DNA of 64,000 bases, from positions 5,104 to 69,103 of the forward strand of contig JALHTW010000126.1 of the NCBI GenBank assembly GCA_022866045.1, written 5' to 3'. The DNA comes from Candidatus Aminicenantes bacterium (GTDB taxonomy: Bacteria > Acidobacteriota > Aminicenantia > Aminicenantales > UBA4085). The notes below the pieces were generated by a model that did no database searches, was not told the DNA's origin, and saw only the letters and a program-made list of their open reading frames with translations. Both the position numbers and the translations under genes were made by a program. Positions within the stretch are counted from its first letter, which is position 1. Each line of letters begins with the position of its first letter. Positions 8,754 through 31,201 of this stretch are shown one piece after another.

Positions 8754-11141
8754 ATGAAGAAAGTATGTCTCTTTTTGATTTCGGGCCTTGTCATCTGTGT
8801 TGCGCTTTTCTTTACTCTTCACGCCGAGATCTATTATCCCTGGAAGGATGTCTATATCGGGGCTTTGGATGGCATGGGCTGGTGCGGCCTCGTCCTGGCC
8901 CCCCAAAAGGACAGCGCCTTCGCCTTTCGGTTTAAAGTCGAGAAAGACGGGAAGATCGCCGACGGAAACGACCTTTTTTATATGGTCTCCGAAGTCGGGC
9001 CGAACCCTCCGGACGGCCATTATGCCCGGGTCAAGTTCGACCTGGGTCTTCCCATCCTTCCGGCCGCTGAAAAAGATGAAACGCCTATTTTGATTAAGCC
9101 TTCGGCCAAATCCGACACCCTGACGCTCGAATGGTCCCGGCAGGACGAACGCTCGGTGATCGGGCGCATTCGGGGGCCGAAAGATGTTAATATCCATCTG
9201 AGCCAATATTTTCCCTGGGACTTCAAAGGTCGTTATCGGCTTCTTCCGGACGGCCAGGTTCAGGGTGAATCTCAGGCCGCTAAACCTTTCTACAGCCTTT
9301 TGTGGACCCACCGAAAAGGAGAGGTCGCCTCGACGAGCGAAGGGGAAGAGATCACGCTTGTCTTCTCCCAGAACGACGAGCGGAGCATCTACTTCGTCGC
9401 CGGAGTCGGCGAAAATCCCGAAACGTTGAAAAAGCTCATCTATCGATACAAGAACACGAAGACCATCGATTCAATCCTCGAAGAGGAACAGGCTAGGTAT
9501 CTCAGAAAACGGGTAATAACGGACGGCCTGTATGAAGGGGTCCCTGAGGCCATCACCAATAATCTGTTCTGGATGGTCCTTTACCAGCCGGGCAGCCATC
9601 GCCTGTACACACCCGCCGGCCGACGCTGGATATTTAATCGGGCTGACGGTTCTCCCGATCACTGGCAGATCTTCGCCTGGGATTCATTCTTCAGCGCCCT
9701 CGAGCTTTCTCTGGAAAGCACGAAACTTGCCGCGGACACGGTGAAGGCCGTCCTCGAAACGCAATACCCGAACGGGAACATCCCGAATTGGCGGAGCCGC
9801 TTCGGCGGAACGGCGGACCGCTCCCAGCCGCCGGTCGGGGCTTATGTCGTGCTCAAACTCTTTCAAAAGACGGGCGACATGGAGCTGCTGAATTTTTCCT
9901 ATCCGTTCCTGAGGAAGTGGCATGGGTTTTGGAAGGCTAGAAAGACGAACGGACAGGCCCGCCGCGACGGCAACGGCGACGGGCTTCTCGAATGGGGCTC
10001 TGACAGGGAGCTTCTCGCTGATAAAGTTCCAGCCTGGGAGGTCAACGCCTCTGGCGAGCAGAGAGCGAAATGGGAATCCGGCCAGGACGACCTGCCCAAC
10101 TGGGACAACGTACCGTTTAATACCCAGACCGGCACGCTGACCATGAACTGCCTCGACCTCAGCTGCCTTTATGCGCTTGACGCCTACTGCCTCGCCGAAA
10201 TGGCCAATATTCTCAACAGGCCCGAGGAATACGAAAATTACCAAGACGAATACACAAAGATGAAAGAACTCATCAACACAAACCTCTGGAACCAACGCGA
10301 GGGATTCTACTTCGACCGCTATTGGGACGGCCGTTTCTCGACACGGAAAGCGGCCTCCAATTTCTATCCGCTCCTGGCCCGTATCCCCGACGAGCGCCAG
10401 GCCCGGCTCATGCTCAGACATCTTCGCAATCCAAAGGAATTCTGGGGGGATTATGTCATTCCGTCGATCTCGCGGGACGACCCGGCCTTCAACGATCCAA
10501 AGAATCCGAACCGTCAGTACTGGCGCGGAACGATCTGGCCGCCGACAAATTACCTGATCTACCAGGGGCTCAAAGCCTATGGATTCGACGCCATCGCTTC
10601 TGAGTTCGCCAAGAAAAGCTCGTCGCTCTTCATGCGGGCGTGGTCCAACTTCCAGCTCTGCCCGGAGAACTTTCATCCTCTGACCGGGGAAGCTGCCGGC
10701 CAGAGATACCAAAGCTGGGGTCCGCTGTTCGCCCTCATCGCGGTCGAGGAATATCTGGATTTTACGCCGTTCGAAGGATTCCGCTTCGGCATGATCCAGC
10801 CGGAAAGGAAAGGCAAGCTCTCCCGGGCGGCGATTCAGGGCCGGAGCTATGACGTCGAGGCGTCCAAGGGCGAGATCCTGCTCCGCGAGGAAGGGAAGGA
10901 GATCGTCACGGTCGACGGAAGCGCTGTAGTCCGTCGCTTCCTCTATTCGGAAAATGAGGTCTCGTTCGAGATCAAGACCATCGCCAAGCGAGAGGTGGAA
11001 ATCCGATTTTTAAAGAAAGGAAAATACCAGCTTCTGATCGATAACCAGCCCAAGCGGATCTTCAAGGGACGTTCGGTCAAGTTCGATGTAGCGGATGGGG
11101 ACCACGTCGTCGAGATCCAGCTTCTCGAAGCGCTGGATTGA
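8754..11141 (+). CDS. Large (alpha/alpha)6 glycoside hydrolase, GH63/MGH1/YgjK-like
   Basis: About 795 aa with an N-terminal membrane-anchor or signal segment. Motifs GDGLLEWGSD, GQDDLPNWDN and YWRGTIWPPTNYLIYQGL are typical of GH63/mannosylglycerate-hydrolase-type glucosidases. Confidence 0.55.
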   Translation: MKKVCLFLISGLVICVALFFTLHAEIYYPWKDVYIGALDGMGWCGLVLAPQKDSAFAFRFKVEKDGKIADGNDLFYMVSEVGPNPPDGHYARVKFDLGLPILPAAEKDETPILIKPSAKSDTLTLEWSRQDERSVIGRIRGPKDVNIHLSQYFPWDFKGRYRLLPDGQVQGESQAAKPFYSLLWTHRKGEVASTSEGEEITLVFSQNDERSIYFVAGVGENPETLKKLIYRYKNTKTIDSILEEEQARYLRKRVITDGLYEGVPEAITNNLFWMVLYQPGSHRLYTPAGRRWIFNRADGSPDHWQIFAWDSFFSALELSLESTKLAADTVKAVLETQYPNGNIPNWRSRFGGTADRSQPPVGAYVVLKLFQKTGDMELLNFSYPFLRKWHGFWKARKTNGQARRDGNGDGLLEWGSDRELLADKVPAWEVNASGEQRAKWESGQDDLPNWDNVPFNTQTGTLTMNCLDLSCLYALDAYCLAEMANILNRPEEYENYQDEYTKMKELINTNLWNQREGFYFDRYWDGRFSTRKAASNFYPLLARIPDERQARLMLRHLRNPKEFWGDYVIPSISRDDPAFNDPKNPNRQYWRGTIWPPTNYLIYQGLKAYGFDAIASEFAKKSSSLFMRAWSNFQLCPENFHPLTGEAAGQRYQSWGPLFALIAVEEYLDFTPFEGFRFGMIQPERKGKLSRAAIQGRSYDVEASKGEILLREEGKEIVTVDGSAVVRRFLYSENEVSFEIKTIAKREVEIRFLKKGKYQLLIDNQPKRIFKGRSVKFDVADGDHVVEIQLLEALD

Positions 11142-11150
11142 ATGCCGCTT

Positions 11151-11978
11151 TTATTTACCGCTGTCTAGATAAGCTTTTTTCAGCGTGTCGCCGCGGACGC
11201 CCTGCCGCAGGGCTTCCAGGGCCAAGATCTCCTCGGCGGCGATATTCCCAAGGTTGACGTTCAGTCCGAAGCGCATGATCAGGTCCTGCTGCTGGTTCTT
11301 GAGGGGAGCCTCCCAGATCAAGACATCCGGGTTCGCAACACCGGCGATGATGTTTTCTATCTCGTCTTTCCGGGTCCGGCCATCCTGGTCGAAGATGCCG
11401 ACGCCCCTGCCCGCCTCTCGCGCTTCAATGATGACCTTGAAAGCCCCGTGTTCGATGTCCTCGGCGATCAGTTGGTGGACGAGAGCGATGGGCACGATAT
11501 CCTTGGGGTCCTTTTTCCCGACCTCTGTGATCACCCGAAAGCCGCGGTCAAGGCATTTTTTGATGACATCGGCCCGGATCTTGGGGCCGATCTCGATCGT
11601 TCCGTCCGAGACTTCGATGGCGGAAAAGCCTAGGTCTTTGGCCCGGCCCAGGTACTCATCCACGACGCCCTGCCAGACCGCGACCTCGAGGAACGTTCCG
11701 CCGGGCATGATCTCGATCCCGCGGTCCGAGATCTCTTCGTTCTTTTCCTTGAGCAGTTTCCGGTCGTAGAAGGCCGACGTTCCGAATGTCAGCTTGATCA
11801 CGTCGATATAGTCGGCGGCGATGTCGAGCAGGTCGTCAAGCTGGTGCAGGCCGATCCCTTTGTCAATGACCATGGTCAGGCCGGTCGTCCGGGGCTTTTG
11901 GCTCCGTCCACCGAGAGGCATGAGGATGACTCCTTCCCAGGCTTTCGGATGGACATCCTTTTTATCTTTCTTGCTCAT
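11151..11978 (-). CDS. (2R)-phospho-3-sulfolactate synthase ComA family protein (PF02679)
   Basis: 275 aa. Blocks MPGGTFLEV, FSAIEVSDG, TEVGKK, VIIEAREAGRGVGIFD, WEAPLKNQQ and NVNLGNIAAEEILALEALRQGVRGDT line up with my recollection of archaeal ComA. RBS aaggag upstream. Confidence 0.75.
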   Translation of the reverse strand: MSKKDKKDVHPKAWEGVILMPLGGRSQKPRTTGLTMVIDKGIGLHQLDDLLDIAADYIDVIKLTFGTSAFYDRKLLKEKNEEISDRGIEIMPGGTFLEVAVWQGVVDEYLGRAKDLGFSAIEVSDGTIEIGPKIRADVIKKCLDRGFRVITEVGKKDPKDIVPIALVHQLIAEDIEHGAFKVIIEAREAGRGVGIFDQDGRTRKDEIENIIAGVANPDVLIWEAPLKNQQQDLIMRFGLNVNLGNIAAEEILALEALRQGVRGDTLKKAYLDSGK

Positions 11979-12975: not shown

Positions 12976-13431
12976 AGCCCGATCTTCTTCCAATGAAGGG
13001 CTATGATACACAAATCATCCTTAGGGAACAATCGATGACTCATTTTTATAATGATACCGGGCCAGGCGGAGGGGGGGCGGAGCTGAATGACCCATCATCA
13101 AAAGGACCCCTGCCGAAATAAGAGATTTGGCTTCAGGGACGGGCATGTGCTTCTCTCTTCAAAAAAGATCGCCCTCAAAAAAATTGTTTATCTTCACGAA
13201 CAAACGTACAACGAGAAGCGATTTTCGCGAAGCCCCAAGATTTCTGTAACTTTTTTGGGTTGTCCGTCGTATTTACCAATGAGGATCTGATCTGGAGGTA
13301 ACAGGGAGAATTCTAGGCACAAAACTTGCAGCTAACTTTTTTGCCTGGCAAGCGATATACTTTATATGGGGAATGGGTTCTCGCTTGATAGATTTTTTTA
13401 CGCTCAACGTAAATTTTTCGAGGAGTCATGG

Positions 13432-14730
13432 ATGAAAAAGATGATGCGTCTGAGTCTTTTCGTGGTCCTTGCCGTCTTTCTGGTGTCCGGGCCGGCGGCT
13501 TTTGCCCAAACAGCCCAAACAGACATAGAAACCCTGAAAAAGAGCGCGCCCAAGGTCTATATCGACTGCGGCATATGCGACATCGAATACATCAAGACCG
13601 AGATCACGTTTGTGAACTATGTCCGCGACCGCAAGGAAGCCGAGGTCCACATCCTGATCACGACCCAAAGCACTGGAGGCGGAGGAAGGGAATATACGCT
13701 GTCCTTTTCCGGCCAGAATGAATTTTTAGGAGTGGATGATACGGTCAAGTATTTTTCCAATCAAACAGACACCGAAGATGAAGTCCGGAAAGGGCTTGTG
13801 AAAACTATCAAAATGGGACTGATGACCTATGTGGCCAAGAGGCCGATCTCGAGCCGGATCGCCGTGTCCTATGCCGAGGAGAAAAAAACTCAGGCTGTTG
13901 TCGACAAGTGGAAATCCTGGGTCTTCAGCCTCAGCGCCCACGGCTATTTCAACGGCGAGAAATCCTATGAATACCAATCGTTCGGCGGGAATTTCTCGGC
14001 CAACCGTGTCACTCCGGACATTAAAATCCGGCTGGGCCTATCGGCGAGCTACAATAACAATATCTATAGATATGGCGGAGATTCTATTAAAAGCAACCAG
14101 CAAAGCTATTATTTCGACGGCCTCGTAGTCAAAAGCATCAACGAACACTGGTCGGTCGGCGGATACCTGAATGCCTCTTCGTCGACTTACTCAAATATCC
14201 GGTTCGGTCTCAGCCCGGCGCCGGCCATCGAGTACAATTTTTTCCCCTATTCCCAGTCTACACGGAGACAGCTTCGCTTCCTTTATAAACTAGGATTCAA
14301 CATAGTCCGCTACAGGGATGAGACGATTTACCTCAAAACCAAAGAGAATCTATGGAAAGAATCCCTGTCGGTCTCCCTGGATGTCAGGGAGAAATGGGGA
14401 ACCATCTCGGCGTCGCTCTCCGGCTCGCATTATTTTCATGATTTCAGCAAGAACAACCTGAATGCCTTCGGCACCGTCCAACTCAATCTTTTCAAAGGGC
14501 TGAACGCCTTTGTCCTGGGCGGCGGTTCACGGATCCGTGACCAGCTGGCGCTTGTCAAGGGCGAAGCCTCTCTTGAAGAGATCATCCTTCAGAGGCGGCA
14601 GCTTGAAACCACCTACAGCTATTTCTTTATGTTCGGCCTGAGTTATACCTTCGGCTCGATCTACACCAACGTTGTGAATCCGCGCTTCGGCAGCACGGGC
14701 AGCGGCGGCATGTCGGTCATCATTAACTAA
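13432..14730 (+). CDS. Secreted beta-rich protein of unknown function, paralog 1 (putative outer-membrane protein)
   Basis: 432 aa. RBS aggag, signal peptide MKKMMRLSLFVVLAVFLVSGPAAFAQ, and repeated amphipathic strands. Clearly homologous to the next gene: FVNYV, SFSGQ.EF, KWxxWVFSLS, SPAPAIEY.FFPYSQST.KQLRFLY, LEEIxLQRRQL and NPRFGS are shared. Confidence 0.6.
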   Translation: MKKMMRLSLFVVLAVFLVSGPAAFAQTAQTDIETLKKSAPKVYIDCGICDIEYIKTEITFVNYVRDRKEAEVHILITTQSTGGGGREYTLSFSGQNEFLGVDDTVKYFSNQTDTEDEVRKGLVKTIKMGLMTYVAKRPISSRIAVSYAEEKKTQAVVDKWKSWVFSLSAHGYFNGEKSYEYQSFGGNFSANRVTPDIKIRLGLSASYNNNIYRYGGDSIKSNQQSYYFDGLVVKSINEHWSVGGYLNASSSTYSNIRFGLSPAPAIEYNFFPYSQSTRRQLRFLYKLGFNIVRYRDETIYLKTKENLWKESLSVSLDVREKWGTISASLSGSHYFHDFSKNNLNAFGTVQLNLFKGLNAFVLGGGSRIRDQLALVKGEASLEEIILQRRQLETTYSYFFMFGLSYTFGSIYTNVVNPRFGSTGSGGMSVIIN

Positions 14731-14847
14731 GGGAGCACTATCGTGCGAACGATATTCATGAATACCCAAATGGCACTCCGAAGTAACAAAGGCGCGTTCG
14801 TCATGAGCTCTCAAACGAGAATCCAGGGAAAACCTGAAGAGGCTAGC

Positions 14848-16143
14848 ATGAAATTCAAAAGAATAGTTATTCTCCTAATGCTTTTTGGCTTTTTATCAAC
14901 GGCCTTTATTCCCACGGGTTTGGCCCAAACCTCTGGACAGGCTGCGAGCGAAGATTTGAAGAAAAACGCCCCGAACGTCTTTCTGAAATCAAGCCTGGAT
15001 CCCGCATATTTTCAGAAAGAGATCGCCTTCGTCAACTACGTCCAGAGCGAAACCGAAGCGCAGGTCCTTGTCGAAATCACGTCTCAAAAGACAGAGCGCG
15101 GCGAAGAATTCACGGTCTCTTTTTCCGGCCAAAAGGAATTCGCCGGAGTCAACGATGTTCTGAAATATACGGCCGATATGTCGAAAAAACCGGAAGAAGC
15201 CAAGCAAGAGCTGGCCCGGATCCTGAAGCTCGGCCTCATGCGCTACGTATCCAAAACGCCGATCGCGAGCCGGGTCAGTGTCGCCTTTATGGACCAGGTC
15301 AAGCCGACGGCCGTCATCGACAAATGGAATTTCTGGGTGTTTAGCCTAAGCGTCAATACGTTCCTCAACGGCGAAAAATCCTATAAGATGGATGAGATAT
15401 TCGGCAGCCTTTCCGCGAGCCGCGTCACCGAGGAATGGAAGATCCGGCTCTCACTAAGTGGATCATACTATAAAAATACGTATTCGGTCGAGGACTATAA
15501 CTACGAAAGCTCCATGGACAGCCGGAGTTTCGGCGGACTGGTAGTCCGGAGCATTTCCGATCACTGGTCTGTCGGGGCGTATATGGGGGTCTCTTCCTCC
15601 ACATACAACAACGCCAAGTTGAGCATCAGCCCGGCGCCGGCCATCGAATATGACCTTTTTCCCTATTCCCAGTCGACAAAGAAGCAGCTGCGTTTCCTAT
15701 ATAGGCTGGGATTCATTAGCATCCGTTATCATGACGAAACGATTTACAATAAAACGAAAGAAAATCTATGGAACGAATCTCTCTCCGCGACCCTGGAGCT
15801 GAAGCAGCCGTGGGGCACGCTCAGCGCCTCGCTTCAAGGCTCCCATTATTTTCATAACATCAAATATTACCGCCTCACGCTCTACGGCGATCTTTCGCTC
15901 CGAATTTTCAAGGGATTGAATTTCAACTTCTACGGCAGCGGCTCCCGGATCCACGACCAGCTGGCGCTGGCAAAGGGAGAAGCAACGCTCGAAGAAGTCC
16001 TGTTGCAGAGGAGGCAGCTTTTGACCGACTATAATTTTTACTTCTCGATCGGCATCAGCTACACCTTCGGTTCGATCTTAAGCAGAGTCGTCAACCCGCG
16101 CTTCGGATCGGGCAGCGGGACATCAATCAGCATCAGCATGTAA
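14848..16143 (+). CDS. Secreted beta-rich protein of unknown function, paralog 2
   Basis: 431 aa from the ATG at 14848 (MKFKRIVILLMLFGFLSTAFIPTGLAQ signal peptide). Tandem paralog of the previous gene. Confidence 0.6.
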   Translation: MKFKRIVILLMLFGFLSTAFIPTGLAQTSGQAASEDLKKNAPNVFLKSSLDPAYFQKEIAFVNYVQSETEAQVLVEITSQKTERGEEFTVSFSGQKEFAGVNDVLKYTADMSKKPEEAKQELARILKLGLMRYVSKTPIASRVSVAFMDQVKPTAVIDKWNFWVFSLSVNTFLNGEKSYKMDEIFGSLSASRVTEEWKIRLSLSGSYYKNTYSVEDYNYESSMDSRSFGGLVVRSISDHWSVGAYMGVSSSTYNNAKLSISPAPAIEYDLFPYSQSTKKQLRFLYRLGFISIRYHDETIYNKTKENLWNESLSATLELKQPWGTLSASLQGSHYFHNIKYYRLTLYGDLSLRIFKGLNFNFYGSGSRIHDQLALAKGEATLEEVLLQRRQLLTDYNFYFSIGISYTFGSILSRVVNPRFGSGSGTSISISM

Positions 16144-16219: not shown

Positions 16220-16245
16220 TTGACTTCTCCGGCATATTGTATAAT
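16220..16245 (+). promoter_or_regulatory. Sigma70-like promoter upstream of the amidohydrolase operon
   Basis: TTGACT at 16220-16225 and TATAAT at 16240-16245 with a TG immediately upstream. The 14-bp spacer is shorter than optimal. It lies ~120 bp upstream of the ATG at 16365. Confidence 0.35.
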
Positions 16246-16364
16246 ATAAATTTCTTATCCGCCCTCTAAGAGGAAAAACCGGTTTGATGCGTGGATGTCC
16301 TTCCTTCCGAGCTTTCAACAGGGAATCTTTCATTTTCATAATTCATCTTGGGGAAAGGAGGCGC

Positions 16365-17660
16365 ATGAACGTCCGCCAATATCTTCATCTTTTCATGGTG
16401 ATCCTATGTCTTTTCGCCTTCGCTTTAGGCGAGACGGCCGATGTCGGCCCGACCTACGCGATTCGCAAGGCGAAGATCGTTCCGGTCTCAGGCCCGGTGA
16501 TCGAGAAGGGGAGCCTTATCATTCGAGATGGCCTGATCGAGGCCGTTGGCCCGGTTGATAAAGTAGCGATCCCGGAAGACGCCGAAGTCATCGAGGCCGA
16601 AGGACTGATCGCCTATCCCGGGCTCATTTCGGCCCACACGAACCTCCTCCTGGAGGAACCGACGCCGGCCCGGACGGCCGAAACCCCGCCCGGCCCGGCC
16701 GAGCTCATCATGGGCGGCGCTGTCCAGGCCCAGGCGGCCCAAACCGCCGACCTCATGATCTTCAAACAGCTCAAGCCCAAGAAAACGACGCTCGACGGTT
16801 TTCTCAAGGTCGGTTTCACGACGGTGCTGGTCGCCCCGAACAGGGGGATTTTCCAGGGCCAGAGCGTTGTCGTGAACCTCAACGGCGAGAAGGCAGAGAC
16901 CATGGTCGTAAAAAATCCCCTGGCGCTCCACATCAATTTCACGACCATTCGCGGCGGGTATCCGTCAAGCCTCATGGGGACGATCGCGTATATCCGCCAG
17001 TCGTTCCTCGACGCCGATCACTATGCCAATGCCCAGACCCTTTACGCGAAGAACCCCAAAGGCATGAAGCGGCCCGAGTTCGATCCCTTTCTCGAAACGC
17101 TCCTGCCTTATCTCAGGGACAAAAAACCGGTCGTTTTCCAGTGCAATGATCTCGAGGACATCAAGCGCGCCCTGAAAATCATCGACGAGTTCAAGCTTAA
17201 GGCCATGCTCACCCACGCTAACGAGGCCTGGCGGGCCGCGGCGGTCTTGAAGAAGATGCCCATACCGCTTCTCGTGACTCTGGACTTCCGGCCGCCGAAC
17301 GGCAGCATGTACGTCAACCAGGGCGAGGATCTGAAGAAAAAAGCGGAGACTGAGATCTACCCGGCCAATGCGGCGAACCTCGTCAAGGAAGGCCTCAGGT
17401 TCGCTCTGACGACGTTCGGGCTGAACGACGGCTCCGCGGCCCTCAAGAACATCCAGTCGGCCATCAAGGCCGGCCTCCCCAAAGAGGAAGCGTTGAAAGC
17501 GCTGACGATCCAGCCGGCCCAGTATTTGGGCCTCGCCCAACAGCTCGGCAGCCTCGAACCCGGAAAGATCGCCAACGTCATCCTGACCAAAGGCGAGCTC
17601 TTCGACGAGAAGACCCAGGTCGAGAAGGTCTTCGTCGATGGAATCCTTTGGAAATTCTGA
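16365..17660 (+). CDS. Amidohydrolase-fold protein (COG1228-like), secreted, with degenerate metal site
   Basis: RBS aaggagg and signal peptide. Homologous to the next two genes (shared C-terminal ALKAxTIxPAxxLG...GSLExGKxAN...DG). It lacks the canonical HxH motif (PGLISAHTNLL); I found no HxH anywhere in the protein. Confidence 0.65.
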   Translation: MNVRQYLHLFMVILCLFAFALGETADVGPTYAIRKAKIVPVSGPVIEKGSLIIRDGLIEAVGPVDKVAIPEDAEVIEAEGLIAYPGLISAHTNLLLEEPTPARTAETPPGPAELIMGGAVQAQAAQTADLMIFKQLKPKKTTLDGFLKVGFTTVLVAPNRGIFQGQSVVVNLNGEKAETMVVKNPLALHINFTTIRGGYPSSLMGTIAYIRQSFLDADHYANAQTLYAKNPKGMKRPEFDPFLETLLPYLRDKKPVVFQCNDLEDIKRALKIIDEFKLKAMLTHANEAWRAAAVLKKMPIPLLVTLDFRPPNGSMYVNQGEDLKKKAETEIYPANAANLVKEGLRFALTTFGLNDGSAALKNIQSAIKAGLPKEEALKALTIQPAQYLGLAQQLGSLEPGKIANVILTKGELFDEKTQVEKVFVDGILWKF

Positions 17661-17666
17661 GGAGAA

Positions 17667-19001
17667 ATGCCGATGAACAAGACGATTAGAAATCTTCTGA
17701 CATCAGCCGTCGTCCTTGCTCTCGCCCCGCTCCCCGTTTTTTCCTCTGGAGGTAACCTTCTCATCAAGAACGGGACCATCCTGACCGTGACCAAGGGCGT
17801 AATCGCAAAAGGGGACATCCTTGTCCTCAACGGCATCATCAGGCAGGTCGGCCAGGACATCCAGGCCCCTGCGGGAGTTCAGGTCATTGATGCCACCGGT
17901 AAGTATGTCATACCTGGGATCATAGACTCTCATACCCACATCGCTCTGGACGGCACCAACGAAGGCTCGGAAGCCATCACGCCTGAAGCCGACGTCGGAG
18001 AAGTCGTCAACGCCGACGACACAGCCATCTTGACAGCCCTGAGCGGCGGCGTGACCATGGTCCATACCATGCACGGCAGCGCGAATCCGATCGGCGGCCC
18101 CAACGTCGTTTTGAAAATGAAATGGGGAAGGCCTTCGGAAGAGCTCATCGTCCACGAGGCCTTGCGGACGCTGAAGTTCGCCCTGGGCGAAAATGTCAAG
18201 CAGTCCAGCCGGACGATTACGGTTGGCGGCCCTCCTCCCCGGTATCCCCAGACGCGCATGGGCACAAACGCCATCATCCGGCGTGAACTGCTCAAAGCGA
18301 AGGTCTATATGGAGGAATGGGACCGCTACAACAAATTGAAAGCCTCCAAGACGCCGCCCAAGAACCTCCTTCCGCCGGGCAAAGACCTCCGGATGGAAGT
18401 TTTATCCGACCTGCTCCGGGGCAAAATGGTTGCCCGCTGCCACGATTACCAGGCCACGGAAGCGCTCGAGTTTATAGGCCTGGCCAAGGAATTCGGCTTC
18501 AAGGTCCAGGCGTTCGAGCACGCCTGGGAAGCTTATAAGATCGCCGCCGAGCTGGCCGCAGCGAAGATCGGAATCTCAGTTTTCGCCGACAGCTGGGCAT
18601 ATAAAATGGAAGCCGCGGAAGGCATCGCCTATGATGCCGGCTATTGCGCGAAAAAAGGGGTGCTTGTTTCGATCAACTCGGACAGCGGCGAGCGAATCCG
18701 GCGCCTGTTCAACGAGGCGAGCAAAACGATGAAATACGGCGGGCTCAATGAGACGGAGGCTCTGAGCCTTGTCACAATCAACCCGGCCATCCAGCTCGGA
18801 GTGGATCGGATCGTCGGGAGCCTCGAAGTCGGCAAACAGGCCGACATCGCCATCTTCAACGAGCATCCGATGAGTTCCTATACCCGGTGCGATATGACCA
18901 TTATTGACGGCGACGTGTATTTCGACCGGGGCCAGTATCTCAAGGAGAGGGAGGAAGCGGCAAAACAGGCCCAAGCTCCCAAAAAAGGAGGCCGGCCATG
19001 A
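17667..19001 (+). CDS. Amidohydrolase (metal-dependent hydrolase, intact HxH motif), secreted
   Basis: PGIIDSHTHIALDG HxH motif, signal peptide and RBS gaggag. ATGA overlap with the next gene. Confidence 0.75.
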   Translation: MPMNKTIRNLLTSAVVLALAPLPVFSSGGNLLIKNGTILTVTKGVIAKGDILVLNGIIRQVGQDIQAPAGVQVIDATGKYVIPGIIDSHTHIALDGTNEGSEAITPEADVGEVVNADDTAILTALSGGVTMVHTMHGSANPIGGPNVVLKMKWGRPSEELIVHEALRTLKFALGENVKQSSRTITVGGPPPRYPQTRMGTNAIIRRELLKAKVYMEEWDRYNKLKASKTPPKNLLPPGKDLRMEVLSDLLRGKMVARCHDYQATEALEFIGLAKEFGFKVQAFEHAWEAYKIAAELAAAKIGISVFADSWAYKMEAAEGIAYDAGYCAKKGVLVSINSDSGERIRRLFNEASKTMKYGGLNETEALSLVTINPAIQLGVDRIVGSLEVGKQADIAIFNEHPMSSYTRCDMTIIDGDVYFDRGQYLKEREEAAKQAQAPKKGGRP

Positions 19002-20293
19002 CGAAACGCATTTTCATTCTCTGTTTGATCGTGGGCTGGGCGGCGGGTCTTTTCTTCGCCCAGACTAAGCCGGCCAAGGTCATTGCCATCAAGGGCGCGA
19101 AGATCGTCCCGGTCGTCGGGGATGACATCGACAACGGCACGATCCTGATCAAGGACGGCAAGATCGAATCGATCGGCAAGGATGTCGCTATTCCGAACGG
19201 CGCCGAAGTCGTAGAGGCCAAAGGCCTCTCCGCCTATCCGGGGATGATCGACAGCTACTCAATCCTCGGCCTCCAGGAGATCAGCGGCGTTTCGGCTACG
19301 GTCGACACCCGGGAAACCGGACGACTGAATCCGCAGGTCTTTGCCATCGAAGCGTTGCGCTACGACTCGATGCACATCCCGATCGCGCGCTCGAACGGCA
19401 TCACGGCGGCCATTGTCGCGCCCTCGGGAGGCGTCATCGCCGGCCAGAGCGTCCTCATTAAGCTCGACGGCTGGACCAACCGCGAGATGGTCATCAAGAA
19501 TCCGGCCGCCATGCAGATTGAATTTCCGGCCATCCGCGGCGGGCGGGGTGGATTCGGCGGCGGCATGGGCAGAGGAGGCGTGGTTGCGGTCGACGCGACC
19601 CGCCTGATCGCTGAACTGAAAGAGGTGTTCAATAAGGCCCGCTATTACAATAAAAGAAAGAATTTTGCGTCGAAGAATCCTTCCCTTCCCATCCCCGAGC
19701 TCGACGAAACGCTGGAGTTCATCCTTCCTGTACTCAAAGGCGAGCTTCAAGTCATGATCTCGGTCCATTCGGACAGGGACATCAAGGCCGCCATCCAGTT
19801 TGTCAAGGACGAGAACCTCAAAGCCGTTTTCTTCGGCGTTGAGCAGGGATGGAAGGTCGCGGACGATATCAAAATAGCCAATATTCCGGTCATCATCGGC
19901 TCGCTTTACGACATGCCGCCGGTCTGGGACGATGGATATGATTCGCTCTTTAGGAATCCGGTCATCCTCAACAAGGCGGGTGTCAAGATCGCTTTCTCTT
20001 CTATGAGCGCGAGCATAGCCAAGGACCTTCCATATCACGCGGCCAAAGCCGCGGCATTCGGGCTGGATAAAAAAGAAGCGCTCAAGGCCGTGACGATCTA
20101 CCCGGCCGAGATCTTCGGCGTCGATAAGCTGATGGGCAGTCTGGAAAAGGGCAAAATAGCCAACGTCGTCCTCTCCGACGGCGACATCCTGGAAACGAAG
20201 ACGAACATCAAGAAGGTTTATATCGACGGGAAAGAATGCGACCTTTCGAACAAGTACACGGAGCTGCTCGAGAAATTCAAGAAGAGAGGATAG
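18998..20293 (+). CDS. Amidohydrolase-fold protein, secreted, HxH motif absent (PGMIDSYSILGL), Gly-rich insert
   Basis: Paralog of the gene at 16365. Very few His residues; Gly-rich GGRGGFGGGMGRGG insert. Confidence 0.65.
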   Translation: MTKRIFILCLIVGWAAGLFFAQTKPAKVIAIKGAKIVPVVGDDIDNGTILIKDGKIESIGKDVAIPNGAEVVEAKGLSAYPGMIDSYSILGLQEISGVSATVDTRETGRLNPQVFAIEALRYDSMHIPIARSNGITAAIVAPSGGVIAGQSVLIKLDGWTNREMVIKNPAAMQIEFPAIRGGRGGFGGGMGRGGVVAVDATRLIAELKEVFNKARYYNKRKNFASKNPSLPIPELDETLEFILPVLKGELQVMISVHSDRDIKAAIQFVKDENLKAVFFGVEQGWKVADDIKIANIPVIIGSLYDMPPVWDDGYDSLFRNPVILNKAGVKIAFSSMSASIAKDLPYHAAKAAAFGLDKKEALKAVTIYPAEIFGVDKLMGSLEKGKIANVVLSDGDILETKTNIKKVYIDGKECDLSNKYTELLEKFKKRG

Positions 20294-20378
20294 TGAGGAA
20301 TGAAAGGGAGACAGGATTTTCAGCGGACCTCTCGGGCAGGGAGAAGGCCTTTTCAATTTTTAGGATAGGAGGAAAAAG

Positions 20379-22199
20379 ATGCGAATAACTCGCCATATTT
20401 TATTCGGATTATTAGCCGTTTGCTGGATGGTCGCTGGGAATTCCGCATTTGCCCCGGCTCAAGGCGCTGTTGAATACGACATCCTCATCAAAAACGGACT
20501 TGTCTATGACGGGTCGCTGGCGCCGCCGGCGAGGGTCGATATCGCCATCAAGGGCGAGACCATCGTCAAGGTCGCGAAATCGATCGACGGGACTGCTGCG
20601 CGCATCATCAACGCCAAGGGGCTGATCGTGACACCCGGATTCATCGACCTCCATACCCATGTCGATGAGGGAATGTATTTCCCGGAAAACAGAGCCTGCC
20701 TGAACTACCTGACCCAGGGCGTGACCACGGTCGTTGTAGGCCAGTGCGGCTCGAGCGCCTGGCCGATCTTCGAGAAGGCCGAGGACCTGATCAAGATGTG
20801 GACGAAGGAAGGGCTCGGGCCGAACGCGGCGGTCTTCGTCGGGCATGGGACCGTCCGGAACATCGTCCTTGGCATGGAAAACCGTGAACCGACGCCGGAG
20901 GAGCTCGAAAAGATGAAAGCCCTGGTCAAGGAAGCCATGGACCAGGGCGCCTCCGGGCTCTCGACGGGGCTGATCTATCTCCCAGGCGCCTATGCCAAAA
21001 CGAACGAAATCATCGAGCTGGCCAAGGTCGTCGCGCCGTACGGCGGCATCTACCACACCCACATCCGGAACGAACGAAACTTGCTTCTGACCGCTGTCCG
21101 GGAAGCGATCGAAATCTCGGAAAAAGCCGGCTTGCCCGCCCATATCTCGCATTTCAAAGTCATGGGCCAGGCGAATTGGGGGTTGGTCAAGGAAGCCTGT
21201 GCCGTCATCGAAGACGCCCGGGCCAAAGGAACGAAGATCACAGCCGACCAATATCCTTATCCCTTTACGAACGGCTATCCCTATCGATCTTTGATACCGA
21301 GAGCGACATGGGTCGGACGGGAGAATGTCGACCGCCTGACGCCCGCCGACGTCACGAGGATCTTCGACCATCTCGGCGATACGGAGCTCCTTGAGCTCTA
21401 TAAGAAGGTGACCCCGTATTATCCGTTGTCCGAGCGGCAGCTTCAATTCCTCGGCGGCTTGCCCCGGAAAAGGCTGGTGGATTTCACCGCTTCGTATCTT
21501 TTCAATATCGATAATTTCCAGGGGCCGGAGAATATGCGCGAGCGGATGCTTTTCTTAAAGCGGATGGCTGACCCGGTAGAGGTCAAGAAGATTCGCCAGG
21601 AGGTCCGCGCCTATATCGAAAATTCTCTCGGTCCCGAGAACTACATCGTCGGCATTTGCGTCGAAAAGAACCTCGAAGGGAAGTCCCTCAAGGACGTTGC
21701 AGCCATCAAAGGGAAGACCATCGAGGACGCCGCCATTGAACTCGACTTGATGGGAGCCAAGTGCATTCCTTTCCAGATGAGCGAGCCCGACATCGAGTCC
21801 ATCATGAAAAAGGATTGGGTTGGAACGGGAAGCGATGGGACGGCTCCGTCTTACGGGATCGGGATGACCCACATCCGCTCCTACTCGACGTTTTTGCGCA
21901 AGATCAAAAATTATGCTCTCGAGAAGCCGGTCCTCTCTCTCTCTCAGGCGATCCGCGCCCAGACGACGCTTCCGGCCCAGATCATGAAATGGGACGATCG
22001 CGGCTGGATCAAAGAAGGATACAAAGCGGATATCGCCGTCATCGACCTCAGGAACCTCAAGACCCCGACGTCCATTTCAAACCCCCACCAGTACAGCCGG
22101 GGGGTCGATTATCTTCTGATTAACGGCAAATTGGTCCTCGATAAAGGAACATGGAGCGGGGCGCTTCCGGGCCAGGTGCTCAAACTTAAGAAATCATAG
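20379..22199 (+). CDS. N-acyl-D-amino-acid deacylase (D-aminoacylase) family amidohydrolase, secreted
   Basis: 606 aa. RBS aggagg, signal peptide, GFIDLHTHVDEG HxH motif and a D-aminoacylase-like architecture with an insert domain. Confidence 0.65.
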   Translation: MRITRHILFGLLAVCWMVAGNSAFAPAQGAVEYDILIKNGLVYDGSLAPPARVDIAIKGETIVKVAKSIDGTAARIINAKGLIVTPGFIDLHTHVDEGMYFPENRACLNYLTQGVTTVVVGQCGSSAWPIFEKAEDLIKMWTKEGLGPNAAVFVGHGTVRNIVLGMENREPTPEELEKMKALVKEAMDQGASGLSTGLIYLPGAYAKTNEIIELAKVVAPYGGIYHTHIRNERNLLLTAVREAIEISEKAGLPAHISHFKVMGQANWGLVKEACAVIEDARAKGTKITADQYPYPFTNGYPYRSLIPRATWVGRENVDRLTPADVTRIFDHLGDTELLELYKKVTPYYPLSERQLQFLGGLPRKRLVDFTASYLFNIDNFQGPENMRERMLFLKRMADPVEVKKIRQEVRAYIENSLGPENYIVGICVEKNLEGKSLKDVAAIKGKTIEDAAIELDLMGAKCIPFQMSEPDIESIMKKDWVGTGSDGTAPSYGIGMTHIRSYSTFLRKIKNYALEKPVLSLSQAIRAQTTLPAQIMKWDDRGWIKEGYKADIAVIDLRNLKTPTSISNPHQYSRGVDYLLINGKLVLDKGTWSGALPGQVLKLKKS

Positions 22200-22241
22200 A
22201 GATCGCAGAAGTTTGTCCTCATCGCCCGATTGCTAAATTTT

Positions 22242-22279
22242 CACGATTGGATTAAGGTTACACGATTGGATTAAGGTTA
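22242..22279. repeat. Perfect tandem direct repeat, 2 x 19 bp (cacgattggattaaggtta)
   Basis: The two copies occupy 22242-22260 and 22261-22279, 34 bp upstream of the asparaginase ATG. A related gattgctaa lies just 5'. Candidate operator or transcription-factor site. Confidence 0.8.
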
Positions 22280-22312
22280 AAGGGAAATTTGAGCGACTTC
22301 TGAGGAGGACCA

Positions 22313-23392
22313 ATGAGCCAAAAATATTCCCGCCGAGATTTCATTAAAACAGGCGCGGCCATGGGGACCGCATCGCTCATGGGGCAGGGAAGGGGCCTTC
22401 TGGCCGGCATCCCGCGGGCCGCGGCCGCGTCCATCGGCATAATGCGGGTCGTATCATCCGGTAACGGCATCCGGGCCGTGGACAAGGCGATGGAAATCCT
22501 CAAAAATAACGGCGACCCGCTTGACGCCGTGATCGCCGGCGTGAACATTGTCGAAGACGACCCCAACGACATGTCTGTCGGCTACGGCGGGCTTCCCAAC
22601 GAAGAAGGTGAGGTCGAGCTTGATGCCTCGGTCATGTATGGCCCGACCCATACGTCGGGCGCCGTCGCTGCGATCAAAAACATCAAAAATCCGTCCAAGG
22701 TGGCGAAGCTCGTAATGGACCGGACCAACCATTGTTTGCTCGTCGGCAAGGGCGCGCTCAAGTTCGCCCTTGCCCACGGCTTCAAAAAAGAGAACCTTCT
22801 GACGGACAAGGCCCGGGAAGCCTGGCTGCGCTGGAAAGAAACGTTGTCCGACAGAGATAACTGGCTTCCCGCGCAGATCAAAAAGCTGCCCGAGGAGCTG
22901 CAGCTTTTAATGATGACCCACGGCACAATCAACTGCATCGCCATCGACGCCCAAGGCCGTCTGGCCGGCGTCACAACGACGAGCGGCCTGTCATGGAAGC
23001 TTCCTGGCCGGGTCGGGGATTCGCCCATTATTGGCGCCGGACTCTATGTCGACAATAATATCGGCGCTGCGGGATCGACCGGCCTCGGAGAGGCCAACAT
23101 CCGGACCTGCGCCAGCTTCCAGGTCGTCAACTTCATGGGCCAGGGAATGTCGCCCGAACAGGCATGCCTAAAAACCTTGGAGAAAATTTCGGAGAAAGCG
23201 AAACTCAGCCCGCCCTCGTTGAAGCTGCTAAACGCCGTGGGACTGCCAAGCTTCGGCCTGAATTTCTATGCGCTCAATAAGAAAGGCGAATTCGGCGCAG
23301 CGTGCATGTGGAGCGGAAGCAAATATGCGGTCCACGACGGCCAGAAAAGCGAATTGAAGGAATGCGCGTTCCTCCATAAGAGCAAAGCTTGA
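22313..23392 (+). CDS. Ntn-hydrolase asparaginase_2 family (glycosylasparaginase / isoaspartyl peptidase), Tat-exported
   Basis: Tat signal RRDFIKTGAAMG. Autoproteolytic site context HGTINCIAIDAQG and GAGLYVDNNIGAAGSTG. RBS gaggagg. Confidence 0.75.
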   Translation: MSQKYSRRDFIKTGAAMGTASLMGQGRGLLAGIPRAAAASIGIMRVVSSGNGIRAVDKAMEILKNNGDPLDAVIAGVNIVEDDPNDMSVGYGGLPNEEGEVELDASVMYGPTHTSGAVAAIKNIKNPSKVAKLVMDRTNHCLLVGKGALKFALAHGFKKENLLTDKAREAWLRWKETLSDRDNWLPAQIKKLPEELQLLMMTHGTINCIAIDAQGRLAGVTTTSGLSWKLPGRVGDSPIIGAGLYVDNNIGAAGSTGLGEANIRTCASFQVVNFMGQGMSPEQACLKTLEKISEKAKLSPPSLKLLNAVGLPSFGLNFYALNKKGEFGAACMWSGSKYAVHDGQKSELKECAFLHKSKA

Positions 23393-24043
23393 TTATTCTT
23401 CCTCGAGGATGAGAACTTTGTAGCCGTCCTCGCAAAGCTTCTGGGCGATCATCTGGGCCGACTCCCTGTCCTTCGTCTTGATGCGGACGCGGTAATAGAC
23501 TTGGGAGGGCGTTTTATATTTGGTGACATAAACGTTCCTGAACTTGCCCCGCAGCCGCTTTTCCAGTTCCCTGGCGTTGTCTTCATTGATGAACGAGCCG
23601 ACTTGGACAGAATAAACGGGAACCGACCGGCCGGCAGAGGTTTGATTCGTGAGGACCTCGAGGCGCACGGGCGCCACTCCCGGGCCGACCATGTCGATGA
23701 GGCTGGCGGCTGCGTAAGAAAGGTCGATGATCCGCTCGCCGACGAACGGGCCGCGGTCATTGATCCGGACGACGACCGAATGCCCGTTGTCCAGGTTCGT
23801 CACCATGACCCGGGTCCCGAAGGGGAGAGTTTTGTGGGCGGCCGTCATGTCATACATGTTATAAATCTCTTTGTTGGATGTCTGTTTCCCATGGAAGTCC
23901 GGGCCATACCAGGAGGCGATCCCGGTCTGGATGTTGCTGCCTCTGGGGAAATACCTTATCCGGGAACAGGATGGGAGTAGCCCGAGAAGGAAGATTAAAA
24001 GGACGAGCGTCGTATTTGTTAAGGGGCGTCTCCGCGTGTTCAT
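23393..24043 (-). CDS. rlpA: Septal ring lytic transglycosylase RlpA (DPBB + SPOR domains), lipoprotein
   Basis: Lipobox LLPSC. DPBB block ASWYGPDFHGKQTSNKEIYNMYDMTAAHKTLPFGT. C-terminal SPOR-like domain (YSVQVGSF...YRVRI). Confidence 0.8.
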   Translation of the reverse strand: MNTRRRPLTNTTLVLLIFLLGLLPSCSRIRYFPRGSNIQTGIASWYGPDFHGKQTSNKEIYNMYDMTAAHKTLPFGTRVMVTNLDNGHSVVVRINDRGPFVGERIIDLSYAAASLIDMVGPGVAPVRLEVLTNQTSAGRSVPVYSVQVGSFINEDNARELEKRLRGKFRNVYVTKYKTPSQVYYRVRIKTKDRESAQMIAQKLCEDGYKVLILEEE

Positions 24044-27927: not shown

Positions 27928-29247
27928 ATGTATCTGGCGATCCTCTGGCATTTCCACCAGCCTATCTACCGGAGGCCGCGCAGCCGCGATTATGTCCTTC
28001 CCTGTGTTAACTATCATGCCACCAAGAACTATTATCAAATGGCGCGCTTGGCTGAAGAGACGGGATTTCCGAGCACGTTCAATTTCGTCCCCTGCCTTCT
28101 AGAGCAGATCGGAGACTACGCGAAAGGCATCGCTAACGATCCCGTTCAATCGGCCCTTGAGCTCCCTCCGGACGGCCTCGGGCCTTACGAGATCGAGTGC
28201 CTCCGAAGGCTTGTGCCCGATGAGACCCGCGCCTCCCGGCTTCAGCAGCGAGCGCTCGAGTCTTTTTTTTCTCCCATCGATGAGGTCAAACACGACAAGC
28301 AGGAGCTTTTAAACAAGCAGAAAGACATCCAGCGAAATTTGATCCCTCTTTGGAAAAGGCTGTGGCAAGAGGGCATCGTCGAGCTGACGGTCTCACCGTA
28401 CTACCATCCTCTCCTCCCGATGATCTTCGATGCGGACTCGGCCGGCGGCGAAAAACCGGCCGTTTGGTTCCGCTATCCCGAGGACGGCCGGGAACAAATC
28501 AAACGGGGACGCGAATATTTCAGGGAAACATTCGGAGATTCTCCCCGCGGAATATGGCCGTCGGAAGGCGGGATCAGCCGGGATGTCGCGGCGGCCATCG
28601 CCGAAACTGGCTTTTCTTTCACCGTGACCGATGAAAACATTCTTTGGAAAAGCCTGCCCGGGCCTTATGATCGGAAGAACCTCTACCTGCCCTATCTTGC
28701 CGAAGGCCTCCCGGTTTTTTTCCGCGACCGGGAGCTGTCCGACCTGCTCGGTTTCGAATACCATCGCCGGAACGAAAAGGACGCCGTCAATGACTTCATC
28801 CGGAGGTTAGAAGAACGGAGGTCCCTCTGCGATGAACGGTCGATCGTTGTTTTAGCTCTTGACGGCGACAACCCCTGGGCTTCTTATCCTCGAAACGGCG
28901 TGCCATTCCTCCGCGAGTTTTTTAATCGGCTGAACGAACATGACGGCCTGACGCCGATCTTTTTCGAGGATTATCTCGCTCTTCACCAGCCGGCGCGGGA
29001 GATCCGGCTTGAGCCGGGGACCTGGCAGGGCAATTTTTCCAAATGGTCGGGCTCGCCGGCCAAGAATGCAACCTGGACCGTCTTAAGCCGCGCCCGGCAA
29101 GATTGCGGCCCCCTCGAGGAGATTATGATCGCCGAAGGCTCGGACTGGTTCTGGTGGTCCGGCGATGAGCATACTGAGGAATTCGCTTTTCTTTTTGACG
29201 GCTACATCCGGGAAGCTTATCATCAAGCGGGAATTCAGCATGAATAA
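27928..29247 (+). CDS. Glycoside hydrolase family 57 protein
   Basis: N-terminal LWHFHQP GH57 signature. 439 aa. Confidence 0.65.
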   Translation: MYLAILWHFHQPIYRRPRSRDYVLPCVNYHATKNYYQMARLAEETGFPSTFNFVPCLLEQIGDYAKGIANDPVQSALELPPDGLGPYEIECLRRLVPDETRASRLQQRALESFFSPIDEVKHDKQELLNKQKDIQRNLIPLWKRLWQEGIVELTVSPYYHPLLPMIFDADSAGGEKPAVWFRYPEDGREQIKRGREYFRETFGDSPRGIWPSEGGISRDVAAAIAETGFSFTVTDENILWKSLPGPYDRKNLYLPYLAEGLPVFFRDRELSDLLGFEYHRRNEKDAVNDFIRRLEERRSLCDERSIVVLALDGDNPWASYPRNGVPFLREFFNRLNEHDGLTPIFFEDYLALHQPAREIRLEPGTWQGNFSKWSGSPAKNATWTVLSRARQDCGPLEEIMIAEGSDWFWWSGDEHTEEFAFLFDGYIREAYHQAGIQHE

Positions 29248-31201
29248 TCCATCCGTTTTTCTGCTGGCGGTCCATAACCATCAGCCCGTCGGGAATTTCA
29301 GCTCCGTCTTTGAAAAGGCCTTCGAGGATTGTTACCGGCCTTTTCTCCGCGAGCTCCACAAGCACCCGGCGATCAAATTCGCGGCCCACTACTCCGGCCC
29401 GCTCCTGGAATACATGGGGGAGAAAGAACCGGAATGCTTGGACATTCTCAAGGACATGGTTGCGAGCGGACAGGTTGAACTCCTGGGCGGCGGCTTCTAC
29501 GAGCCCATCCTGACGATTTTGCCCGAAGAAGACAGGCAGGGACAGCTGCGGATGATGAATGAGTTTCTGGAAGATAATTTTCAAATACGCCCGCGTGGCA
29601 TCTGGCTCACGGAACGGGTCTGGGAACCGACCCTCCCGAAGACTCTGGCCCGGGCCGGAATAGAATACACGCTCCTGGACGAGGAACACTTCCATTATGC
29701 CGGCATCCAAAATCTCTACGCCTATTACATAACCGAGGACGAGGGCTATCCCCTAAAGATCTTTCCCATCGATAAAAAACTGCGGTATCTCATCCCGTTC
29801 CAAACGCTGCCGGACATCGAATCCTACCTTGAAGAGATCAAGGCGCAAAACGGGCTGGCGATTCTCGGCGACGACGGCGAGAAGTTCGGACTGTGGCCGG
29901 GAACGAAAAAATGGGTCTACGAGGAAGGCTGGCTGGCGAAATTCCTATCCTTTTTAGAAGAGAAAAACATTCAGACCCAGACATATTCCGAAGTTATAGA
30001 CCGCCGGCCGCCGGCCGGCCGAGTTTATCTCCCGCCCGCCTCGTATGAAGAGATGATGGAGTGGGTCCTCGAACCGGAGGATGCCGCGTTCTTCAAAAGG
30101 CTCAAAGATGAGAATCCAGCCGAAGCAAGGAGATACCTCCGGGGCGGTTTCTTCCGCGAATTCTTCCTGAAGTACCTCGAATCCAACCACCTTCACAAGC
30201 GAATGATCATGATTTCACGCAAAGTGAACCGGACATCGAACGAGGCCGCGAGAAAGGAGCTCTATAAAGGCCAGGGCAATGATCCCCTCTGGCACGGCGT
30301 CTTCGGCGGACTCTACCTCCCCCATCTGCGCGAAGCCGCCTACGACCATCTTTTGAAAGCCGACGCCTTGGTCCCATCCGAGAGCGGCTGGCATATAGGA
30401 GATTATGACCAGGACGCCCGCGCGGAAGCGATCTGGCAGGGCCGGACATTCGGCCTTCTCCTCAAGCCGGCCTTCGGTGGGAGCCTCGTCGAGATCGACC
30501 ATTTTCCCTTGTCCCGGAATCTGATGGATGTCCTCTCCCGGAGAAAGGAAGCCTATCACGTCCGACAGCTGTCCCAGCCGAACGGCAAAGGGAAGAGCAT
30601 CCATGAGCTCGCCAAAGAGCTTCCGGCCGGGTCTGAAAATTTTATCCGCTGCGACCGGCACCCGCGCTATTCCGCGCTCGACCATTTTCTCCATCCGGAA
30701 ACGACTCTTGAAAAATTTCAAACCGCGGCCTATGACGAACAGGGCGATTTTATCGATCAGCCGTATGATATCCGGGTCCATGAACCGATTCTTCGCCTTC
30801 ACCGGGAAGGGCACGTCTTGGTCGCTGGGGAGAAAATTCCGGTTTGCGTTCAAAAAGAGATCGAACCTCAAGGCCAGGAGATCATGATCCGTTATATGAT
30901 CAGGAATCTCGCCGATAAAACGACCCATTTAAAATTCGGAAGTGAGTGGAATTTCTATCAAATAGCGGAGGAGATCGCCGTCAGCCAAAACGAGGTCCGT
31001 CTCTGCGGAGGCCGCATCCGCTTCGAAGTTTTTCCACGGCCGGAGATCTGGCATTTTGCGCTCCAGACGCTCTCCCAATCCGAAAAGGGATATGATATAA
31101 TCCATCAAGGATTCTGCCTTCTTCCGTGGTGGAGCGTCACGCTCTCCGGAGGAGAGGAATTCAGGGCCCAATTTTCGCTGAGAGATCATCGTGGAACATA
31201 A
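29240..31201 (+). CDS. GH57 alpha-amylase/4-alpha-glucanotransferase (AmyC-like, with DUF1925/1926-type C-terminus)
   Basis: MNNPSVFLLAVHNHQPVGNF GH57 catalytic N-terminus. 653 aa. 8-nt overlap with the upstream GH57 gene. Confidence 0.7.
   Translation: MNNPSVFLLAVHNHQPVGNFSSVFEKAFEDCYRPFLRELHKHPAIKFAAHYSGPLLEYMGEKEPECLDILKDMVASGQVELLGGGFYEPILTILPEEDRQGQLRMMNEFLEDNFQIRPRGIWLTERVWEPTLPKTLARAGIEYTLLDEEHFHYAGIQNLYAYYITEDEGYPLKIFPIDKKLRYLIPFQTLPDIESYLEEIKAQNGLAILGDDGEKFGLWPGTKKWVYEEGWLAKFLSFLEEKNIQTQTYSEVIDRRPPAGRVYLPPASYEEMMEWVLEPEDAAFFKRLKDENPAEARRYLRGGFFREFFLKYLESNHLHKRMIMISRKVNRTSNEAARKELYKGQGNDPLWHGVFGGLYLPHLREAAYDHLLKADALVPSESGWHIGDYDQDARAEAIWQGRTFGLLLKPAFGGSLVEIDHFPLSRNLMDVLSRRKEAYHVRQLSQPNGKGKSIHELAKELPAGSENFIRCDRHPRYSALDHFLHPETTLEKFQTAAYDEQGDFIDQPYDIRVHEPILRLHREGHVLVAGEKIPVCVQKEIEPQGQEIMIRYMIRNLADKTTHLKFGSEWNFYQIAEEIAVSQNEVRLCGGRIRFEVFPRPEIWHFALQTLSQSEKGYDIIHQGFCLLPWWSVTLSGGEEFRAQFSLRDHRGT

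Follow-up and report, generated by a model that had tools for sequence, protein, structure and literature searches.

Members of the amidohydrolase superfamily, a model system for the assignment of enzyme function, are normally regarded as homo-oligomers whose subunits are all active. This is true of the cog1228 peptidases, which remove the C-terminal residue from dipeptides or N-acyl amino acids and include the Lys/Arg carboxypeptidase Cc2672 (PDB entry 3MTW), Sgx9359b (3BE7), the prolidases Sgx9260b and Sgx9260c (3MKV, 3N2C/3FEQ) and an Alteromonas Xaa-Pro dipeptidase (2QS8). Here, we analyzed a stretch of 64,000 nucleotides (hereafter the window) from a Candidatus Aminicenantes bacterium of the phylum Acidobacteriota (assembly GCA_022866045.1, contig JALHTW010000126.1, positions 5,104 to 69,103 of the forward strand; homologs and genome matches agree with this placement), in which three adjacent genes, here called A, B and C, encode exported paralogs with the amidohydrolase fold. 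B carries a complete set of metal ligands, whereas A and C have lost the site. We propose, with a probability of roughly three in four, that the three proteins form an exported heteromeric amidohydrolase in which an active B is joined by noncatalytic A and C, at the 1:1:1 ratio implied by natural fusion proteins, and which would act outside the cytoplasm on small peptides or N-acyl amino acids.

Pseudoenzyme partners as such are a known theme. In Pseudomonas, the inactive dihydroorotase-like protein PyrC' scaffolds aspartate transcarbamoylase (ATCase), and the CRMP/DPYSL proteins are dead paralogs of dihydropyrimidinase. Both may be likened to A and C, in that they kept the amidohydrolase fold, lost the metal ligands and were retained as structural or regulatory partners, following the same logic of a pseudoenzyme kept for assembly. 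An analogy with the dihydroorotase-like subunits of ATCase was drawn in a preliminary description of this DNA; the principle appears to be shared, but no relationship closer than the superfamily is seen in the sequences, and the comparison with PyrC' and CRMP is one of analogy only. PyrC' scaffolds an unrelated enzyme instead of its own active paralog, CRMPs form complexes without an active partner, and neither is exported, belongs to a set of one active and two inactive paralogs, or has fused counterparts. A dead duplicated paralog that heteromerizes with the active enzyme is found in the trypanosomatid pair of AdoMetDC and its prozyme, a system that differs from A-B-C in fold, compartment and stoichiometry. 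What sets the present case apart from PyrC' and CRMP is the proposed partnering of dead paralogs with their own active paralog, in an exported system with fused counterparts.

We found no description of an A-B-C module, or of a function for 3OOQ, the Thermotoga maritima amidohydrolase to which, among solved structures, all three proteins are closest, in the literature on cog1228 amidohydrolases, on pseudoenzymes of the superfamily and on amidohydrolases of Aminicenantes. Preprints from 2026 on metal-dependent bile salt hydrolases just cite the cog1228 prolidase paper. The database names of homologs are all generic, being either "amidohydrolase family protein" or "imidazolonepropionase-like amidohydrolase".

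Loss of the metal site in A and C

The genes A (16365-17660, + strand, 431 amino acids), B (17667-19001, + strand, 444 amino acids) and C (18998-20293, + strand, 431 amino acids) encode proteins that exceed the gathering score of 25 for the Pfam family Amidohydro_1 (48.5, 68.1 and 41.7 bits, respectively) and match 3OOQ over their full length (E values of 2e-31 for A, 7e-56 for B and 2e-33 for C). Judged by Pfam score and full-length alignment, A, B and C, as well as the downstream gene D, belong to the superfamily fold. A modeled fusion protein likewise had 3OOQ as by far its best structural match (template-modeling score 0.91, root-mean-square deviation 2.4 Å, 34% identity). 3OOQ, a structural-genomics entry with no reported function, resembles B in carrying the HxH, Lys, His, His and Asp segments, and differs from A-B-C in being a single gene product, crystallized as 10 identical chains without a signal peptide, for which no dead partners have been reported; the cog1228 enzymes crystallized with 8 or more chains. 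The next-best matches were the cog1228 dipeptidases and carboxypeptidases 3MTW, 3BE7, 3MKV, 3N2C and 2QS8, which have the same fold and ligand set as B, but whose similarity is partial and weak (E values of 1e-4 to 1e-10). Only terminal segments aligned with the NCBIfam family NF051886 (XaaProDiPepCaul), at 49.0 bits for A, 53.0 for B and 46.1 for C against a cut-off of 500. Among the three paralogs, A and C are the closest pair by hhalign (611, vs 506 for B and C and 423 for B and A), suggesting that they are sister paralogs descended from one partner that had already diverged.

Family alignments comprised 82 A-type, 110 B-type and 167 C-type sequences, and the ligands of B were mapped onto A and C by profile-profile alignment. 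Ligands of amidohydrolases belong at the ends of barrel strands 1, 4, 5, 6 and 8, and in models of fusion proteins made with AlphaFold2 (AF2) the invariant residues of B lie in, or no more than 2 residues after, predicted strands assigned to these five. The two His residues of the HxH motif in B, H89 and H91, correspond to His and Asn in A and to Tyr and Ile in C; K170 is replaced by His in A and Gln in C, the strand-5 residue H259 by Gln and Ser, and the strand-8 residue D339 by Phe and Met, while the strand-6 residue H285 is matched by His in A and replaced by Gly in C. A therefore matches two of the six ligand positions of B and C matches none, and the binuclear-metal set of HxH, Lys, His, His and Asp is complete in B and in neither of its flanking paralogs. 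An apparent strand-5 His in C was rejected as a retained ligand, since the residue aligned by profile-profile alignment is Ser and the neighboring His is not conserved in the family. The preliminary description had located an HxH motif only in the middle paralog and in D, and had called the flanking paralogs poor in His; the segments concerned read DSHTH in B and DLHTH in D, vs SAHTN in A (first His retained, second replaced by Asn) and DSYSI in C, and the His content is indeed lower in A (5 residues, 1.2%) and C (3 residues, 0.7%) than in B (8 residues, 1.8%).

The loss extends through both families. Whereas the six ligands are invariant in 109 to 110 of the 110 B-type sequences, no ligand position is consistently retained among the A-type or the C-type sequences. 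The same pattern is found among representatives at 50% identity from outside Aminicenantes (45 A-type, 76 B-type and 138 C-type): all six ligands are present in 75 of the 76 B-type representatives, no A-type or C-type representative retains more than two of the six, and the strand-6 His is replaced by Gly in 40/45 A-type and 116/138 C-type representatives. Ligands that are displaced yet still present, an outcome that the preliminary description had weighed against its own proposal of dead subunits, are not what the alignments reveal, as all six positions are affected family-wide.

Loss of the canonical ligands might nevertheless leave A and C as enzymes with a non-canonical or metal-independent site, making the locus a set of three or four hydrolases acting in series. 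Some superfamily members do work metal-free, LigI being one, and both families retain a few near-invariant acidic, basic and aromatic residues (D103, D315, E94, E106, R131 and Y314 in C; near-invariant polar residues in the A domain of fusions are R207, Q208, D212 and E271). We nonetheless regard retained catalysis as very unlikely, given that no invariant His, Cys or Lys was found across the A and C halves of the fusion alignments or in 46 stand-alone C proteins, that all six catalytic-site positions vary, and that a single active domain per fusion is the rule (75 of 76 cases). Several of the conserved acidic residues of A and C look structural, moreover, since the segment that contains them is also present in B and 3OOQ.

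Inactive copies could also be functionless duplicates of B undergoing decay, for which the lost catalytic residues would speak. This is contradicted by the data and is next to impossible in our estimate. Against five Aminicenantes orthologs, the ratio of nonsynonymous to synonymous substitution rates (dN/dS) was 0.14-0.22 for A, 0.11-0.24 for C and 0.065-0.115 for B, values that are approximate because dS, at about 1-2, is near saturation. Both A and C have intact frames with signal peptides, and the C family is strongly conserved, the 120 best homologs of C being 64-97% identical to it. In several phyla, orthologs of the A and C domains can still be recognized, and fusion proteins retain them. 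A and C are thus under purifying selection and are not decaying copies.

Gene order and natural fusion proteins

Of 46 Aminicenantes loci, about 40 show the A-B-C order, which is present on every contig of sufficient length and usually comes with overlaps of 4 nt. Contig ends or frameshifts in long-read assemblies interrupt nearly all of the others, and one distant locus (L046, 56% identity) gave just weak, fragmented matches to the triplet; a further Aminicenantes relative (L055) has the full row. The context of distant stand-alone C genes was sampled at four genes, all of which have a B-type gene directly upstream (4/4), and the complete A-B-C row is present in the three with enough flanking sequence (L050, L052 and L054). 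The short contig at L053 covers just the C-terminus of the B-type gene that lies upstream of C, and at L049 an A gene abuts a B-C fusion. DxHxH is confined to the B-type member in every one of the loci looked up (L049, L050 and L052-L055). The preliminary description had also counted A or C genes lacking an active partner as evidence against its proposal, and none were encountered in the samples taken.

An exhaustive search with C returned 13,461 representative clusters at E <= 1e-3 and 1,531 at E <= 1e-30, the latter count including other members of the wider amidohydrolase family as well. The best 150 representatives contain 48 A-B-C fusions, 41 B-C fusions, 2 A-B fusions and 56 stand-alone C proteins. 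Most A-B-C fusions are 1,266-1,589 amino acids long, and the order of their domains always equals the gene order of the window, so that A corresponds to the N-terminal and C to the C-terminal domain. The orthology of the fused domains is clear because each scores best against its own type. Linkers range from tens of residues up to about 165, and a signal peptide stands at the start of every full-length fusion inspected. Fused genes were found in an isolate, Armatimonas rosea, and elsewhere in Armatimonadota, as well as in Planctomycetota, Phycisphaerae and Vicinamibacterales; some lie on multi-megabase contigs and are therefore not assembly artifacts. These proteins are the strongest evidence that A, B and C may associate physically. 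Among the less usual architectures are P0252 (1,079 amino acids), an A-B fusion with an unrelated C-terminal extension in place of C, and P0381 (1,658 amino acids), a long form with a match to the Pfam family Porphobil_deam; in Armatimonas rosea, a Porphobil_deam gene (L056:10206-10991) overlaps the end of the fused gene.

Two of the fusions were modeled with AF2. The B-C fusion P0151, with an alignment of 19 sequences, gave a mean predicted local distance difference test (pLDDT) of 85.5 and a predicted template-modeling score (pTM) of 0.85, and the A-B fusion P0269, with 25 sequences, gave a pLDDT of 81.5 and a pTM of 0.83, both pTM values being read without a map of predicted aligned error (PAE) or a control. 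Low confidence was limited to signal peptides, linkers and a few loops. For two domains of equal size joined by a disordered linker of 45-70 residues, a pTM of this height suggests that the relative placement of the domains is predicted with confidence.

The fusions and models also bear on the possibility that A and C are co-expressed without a stable complex with B, as independent binding or holding proteins that pass substrate to B or to a transporter. Their preserved fold under purifying selection would suit such a role, as would the separate signal peptide on each and the motifs, such as RNLPY and DDPYD in C, that each family conserves outside the six ligand positions. Conservation is what one would expect of a defined ligand pocket, whereas the former metal-site positions are variable, and repeated fusion in a fixed order, together with the high pTM of both two-domain models, argues for a fixed packing. 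We therefore consider independent binding proteins unlikely, with the proviso that this role overlaps with the heteromeric amidohydrolase that we favor, as fusion is also compatible with a hand-over of substrate inside one assembly.

Downstream enzymes and the surroundings of the triplet

Five co-directional open reading frames (ORFs) on the + strand, A to E, fill positions 16365-23392, and a check of the ORFs bore out all five positions and the strand given in the preliminary description. A begins with the ATG at 16365, which is preceded by the Shine-Dalgarno sequence GGAAAGGAGG and yields an N-terminus in agreement with orthologs; a longer ORF starting with TTG at 16284 is unsupported in comparison. 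The ATGA coupling reported within the triplet is present as the overlap of B and C (18998-19001), and A and B are spaced by 6 nt. Within the 221-bp gap 5' of A lies a promoter-like site, TTGACT - 16 nt - TAATAT (16220..16247, + strand), with 9/12 consensus matches, where the transcription unit of A likely starts; the evidence is weak, the scan as a whole having returned 11 sites vs 6.1 +/- 2.4, which is not a significant enrichment. Export signals had been noted on all five proteins, and the N-termini of A, B, C and D are hydrophobic in the manner of Sec signals, while E contains the twin-arginine motif SRRDFIK with a score of 21.4 bits for the Pfam family TAT_signal, slightly below the cut-off of 22.7. 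The gene 3' of E is convergent.

D (20379-22199, + strand, 606 amino acids) matches Amidohydro_3 at 102 bits against a cut-off of 29.7, and its earlier designation as a D-aminoacylase-type amidohydrolase is well founded: it aligns with the D-aminoacylase structures 1RJP/1M7J at an E value of 7e-66, with DLHTH, GQCG, HTHIRNE, ISHFKV and GSDG paired with their counterparts, so that the HxH, Cys, His, His and Asp segments are all aligned. NCBIfam PRK09061 is matched at 174.6 bits, below its cut-off of 340; none of the five proteins A to E reached a curated NCBIfam equivalog cut-off. Compared with the Alcaligenes D-aminoacylase, D is interrupted between its two aligned blocks by about 135 additional residues (query 295-431). 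In the PDB search, D also matched the carbohydrate de-N-acetylases 9KB1/9KB3 (E about 1e-47), so its substrate could be an N-acetylated sugar or glycopeptide instead of an N-acyl-D-amino acid, a possibility that would fit the adjacent E. The label of glycosylasparaginase given to E (22313-23392, + strand, 359 amino acids), an Ntn-hydrolase, is justified as well. It matches Asparaginase_2 at 231 bits, and the solved structure most similar to it is the Flavobacterium glycosylasparaginase 1P4K, at an E value of 1e-74, vs 7e-39 with the best isoaspartyl peptidase. The mature beta chain of glycosylasparaginase aligns from residue 205, an HGT segment pairs with HNT of 1P4K, and the nucleophile Thr is therefore probably retained.

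In the preliminary description, A to D formed an array that was followed by E. The A-B-C part of this array is conserved, but D and E are lineage-specific companions outside the conserved module: among the 46 Aminicenantes loci, D occurs just in the closest relatives L001 and L002, and E just in L001, L002, L005 and L037. In most Aminicenantes, an M20 peptidase gene lies directly 3' of C (19 loci; e.g., L016:11220-12830 and L055:9314-10855), a gene for an S9 prolyl-oligopeptidase follows on the opposite strand in 22, and D and E take the position of the M20 gene in the lineage of the window. The downstream partner of the triplet thus appears interchangeable among enzymes of exopeptidase or aminoacylase type. 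At other loci, the genes near the triplet encode M28 (with a 4-nt overlap with C), M14 and M24 peptidases, and an S9/esterase or trypsin-like protease. This context is suggestive and points to the breakdown of peptides or amides outside the cytoplasm, and a peptidase-rich neighborhood would fit the chemistry of the cog1228 peptidases.

Just upstream of A lie the tandem paralogs U1 (13366-14730, +) and U2 (14743-16143, +), which share 53% identity, both have signal peptides and gave no match in Pfam, NCBIfam or PDB; they could be a pair of envelope or outer-membrane proteins. U1/U2 precede A-B-C just in the closest Aminicenantes relatives (L001-L003, L005 and L037), and proteins of 843-845 amino acids encoded upstream of fused genes in L047 and L049 proved unrelated to them when compared. 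Elsewhere in the window are genes for a GH63/MGH1-like glycoside hydrolase (8742-11141, +), a homolog of the phosphosulfolactate synthase ComA (11151-11978, -), an RlpA-like lipoprotein with DPBB and SPOR domains (23393-24043, -) and, further downstream, two GH57 genes (27928-31201). Between 52000 and 56000 the G+C content falls to 0.43-0.45, vs about 0.55 elsewhere, and parA/parB-like genes are present (53278-54042 and 54029-54877); this region could lie close to the origin or could be an acquired element.

A putative heteromeric exported amidohydrolase

We propose that B is the sole catalytic subunit, with a binuclear metal center formed by HxH, a presumably carboxylated Lys, two His and an Asp, and that A and C, which have kept the fold and lost the metal site, most likely serve as structural partners that pack against B. 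Such partners are the usual outcome when a homo-oligomeric enzyme is duplicated and some copies lose the active site. Each subunit would be exported by its own Sec signal and assembled outside the cytoplasm, whereas in other phyla the same three parts are made as one A-B-C polypeptide; the likely substrates are small peptides or N-acyl amino acids, in which an amide or peptide bond would be cleaved. We infer a scaffold role for A and C because the positions of the former active site are variable and the wider family is oligomeric. The view put forward in the preliminary description, in which A and C are dead subunits of an exported heteromeric amidase or peptidase, is thus well supported, with the ligands lost rather than displaced, no A or C without an active partner among the loci sampled, and fusions of the A-B-C, B-C and A-B types on record.

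Several points weigh against this proposal. (i) For the separate A, B and C proteins of the window, the support for a complex is indirect throughout, coming by way of fusions, gene order and AF2 models, and a fixed packing of domains is here read from pTM. (ii) The scan of the genome collection used the C protein of the window alone as its query and reached Aminicenantes only, the sample of distant stand-alone C genes is small, and the estimates of selection share the approximate nature of the dN/dS values. (iii) The scores of B fall far short of all NCBIfam equivalog cut-offs, so that its activity cannot be assigned from a characterized enzyme. (iv) No conserved neighbors of the fused genes were found in Armatimonadota and one 9.2-Mb genome examined, so the peptidase context is not universal and is suggestive only.

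A more far-reaching arrangement, which we put forward tentatively and consider possible rather than probable, is that the dead paralogs A and C are more than an inert scaffold and enclose the single active site of B in a chamber, closed or gated, or else extend the surface on which substrate is recognized. If so, a core of the dipeptidase type could act on substrates that are larger or out of the ordinary, among them necromass peptides that are modified, glycosylated or contain D-amino acids, and the complex would be the first obligate heterotrimeric enzyme of the amidohydrolase superfamily built from its own paralogs, representing a widespread and previously undescribed extracytoplasmic class.

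For the annotation of genomes, the module is a case in which "amidohydrolase family protein" is assigned three times although two of every three copies are predicted to be unable to bind catalytic metals, and such genes inflate the hydrolase repertoires predicted from metagenomes. Members of the module were checked in Acidobacteriota, Armatimonadota and Planctomycetota. For protein evolution, the module offers a clean natural case of a duplicated enzyme turned into a heteromer with pseudoenzyme partners, in which split, partly fused and fully fused forms can be compared, and it is experimentally accessible because the fused form is present in the cultured Armatimonas rosea. For the ecology of Aminicenantes, the link of the triplet with M20, S9, D-aminoacylase-type and glycosylasparaginase enzymes suggests a part in degrading peptides and modified amino acids outside the cell in sediments.

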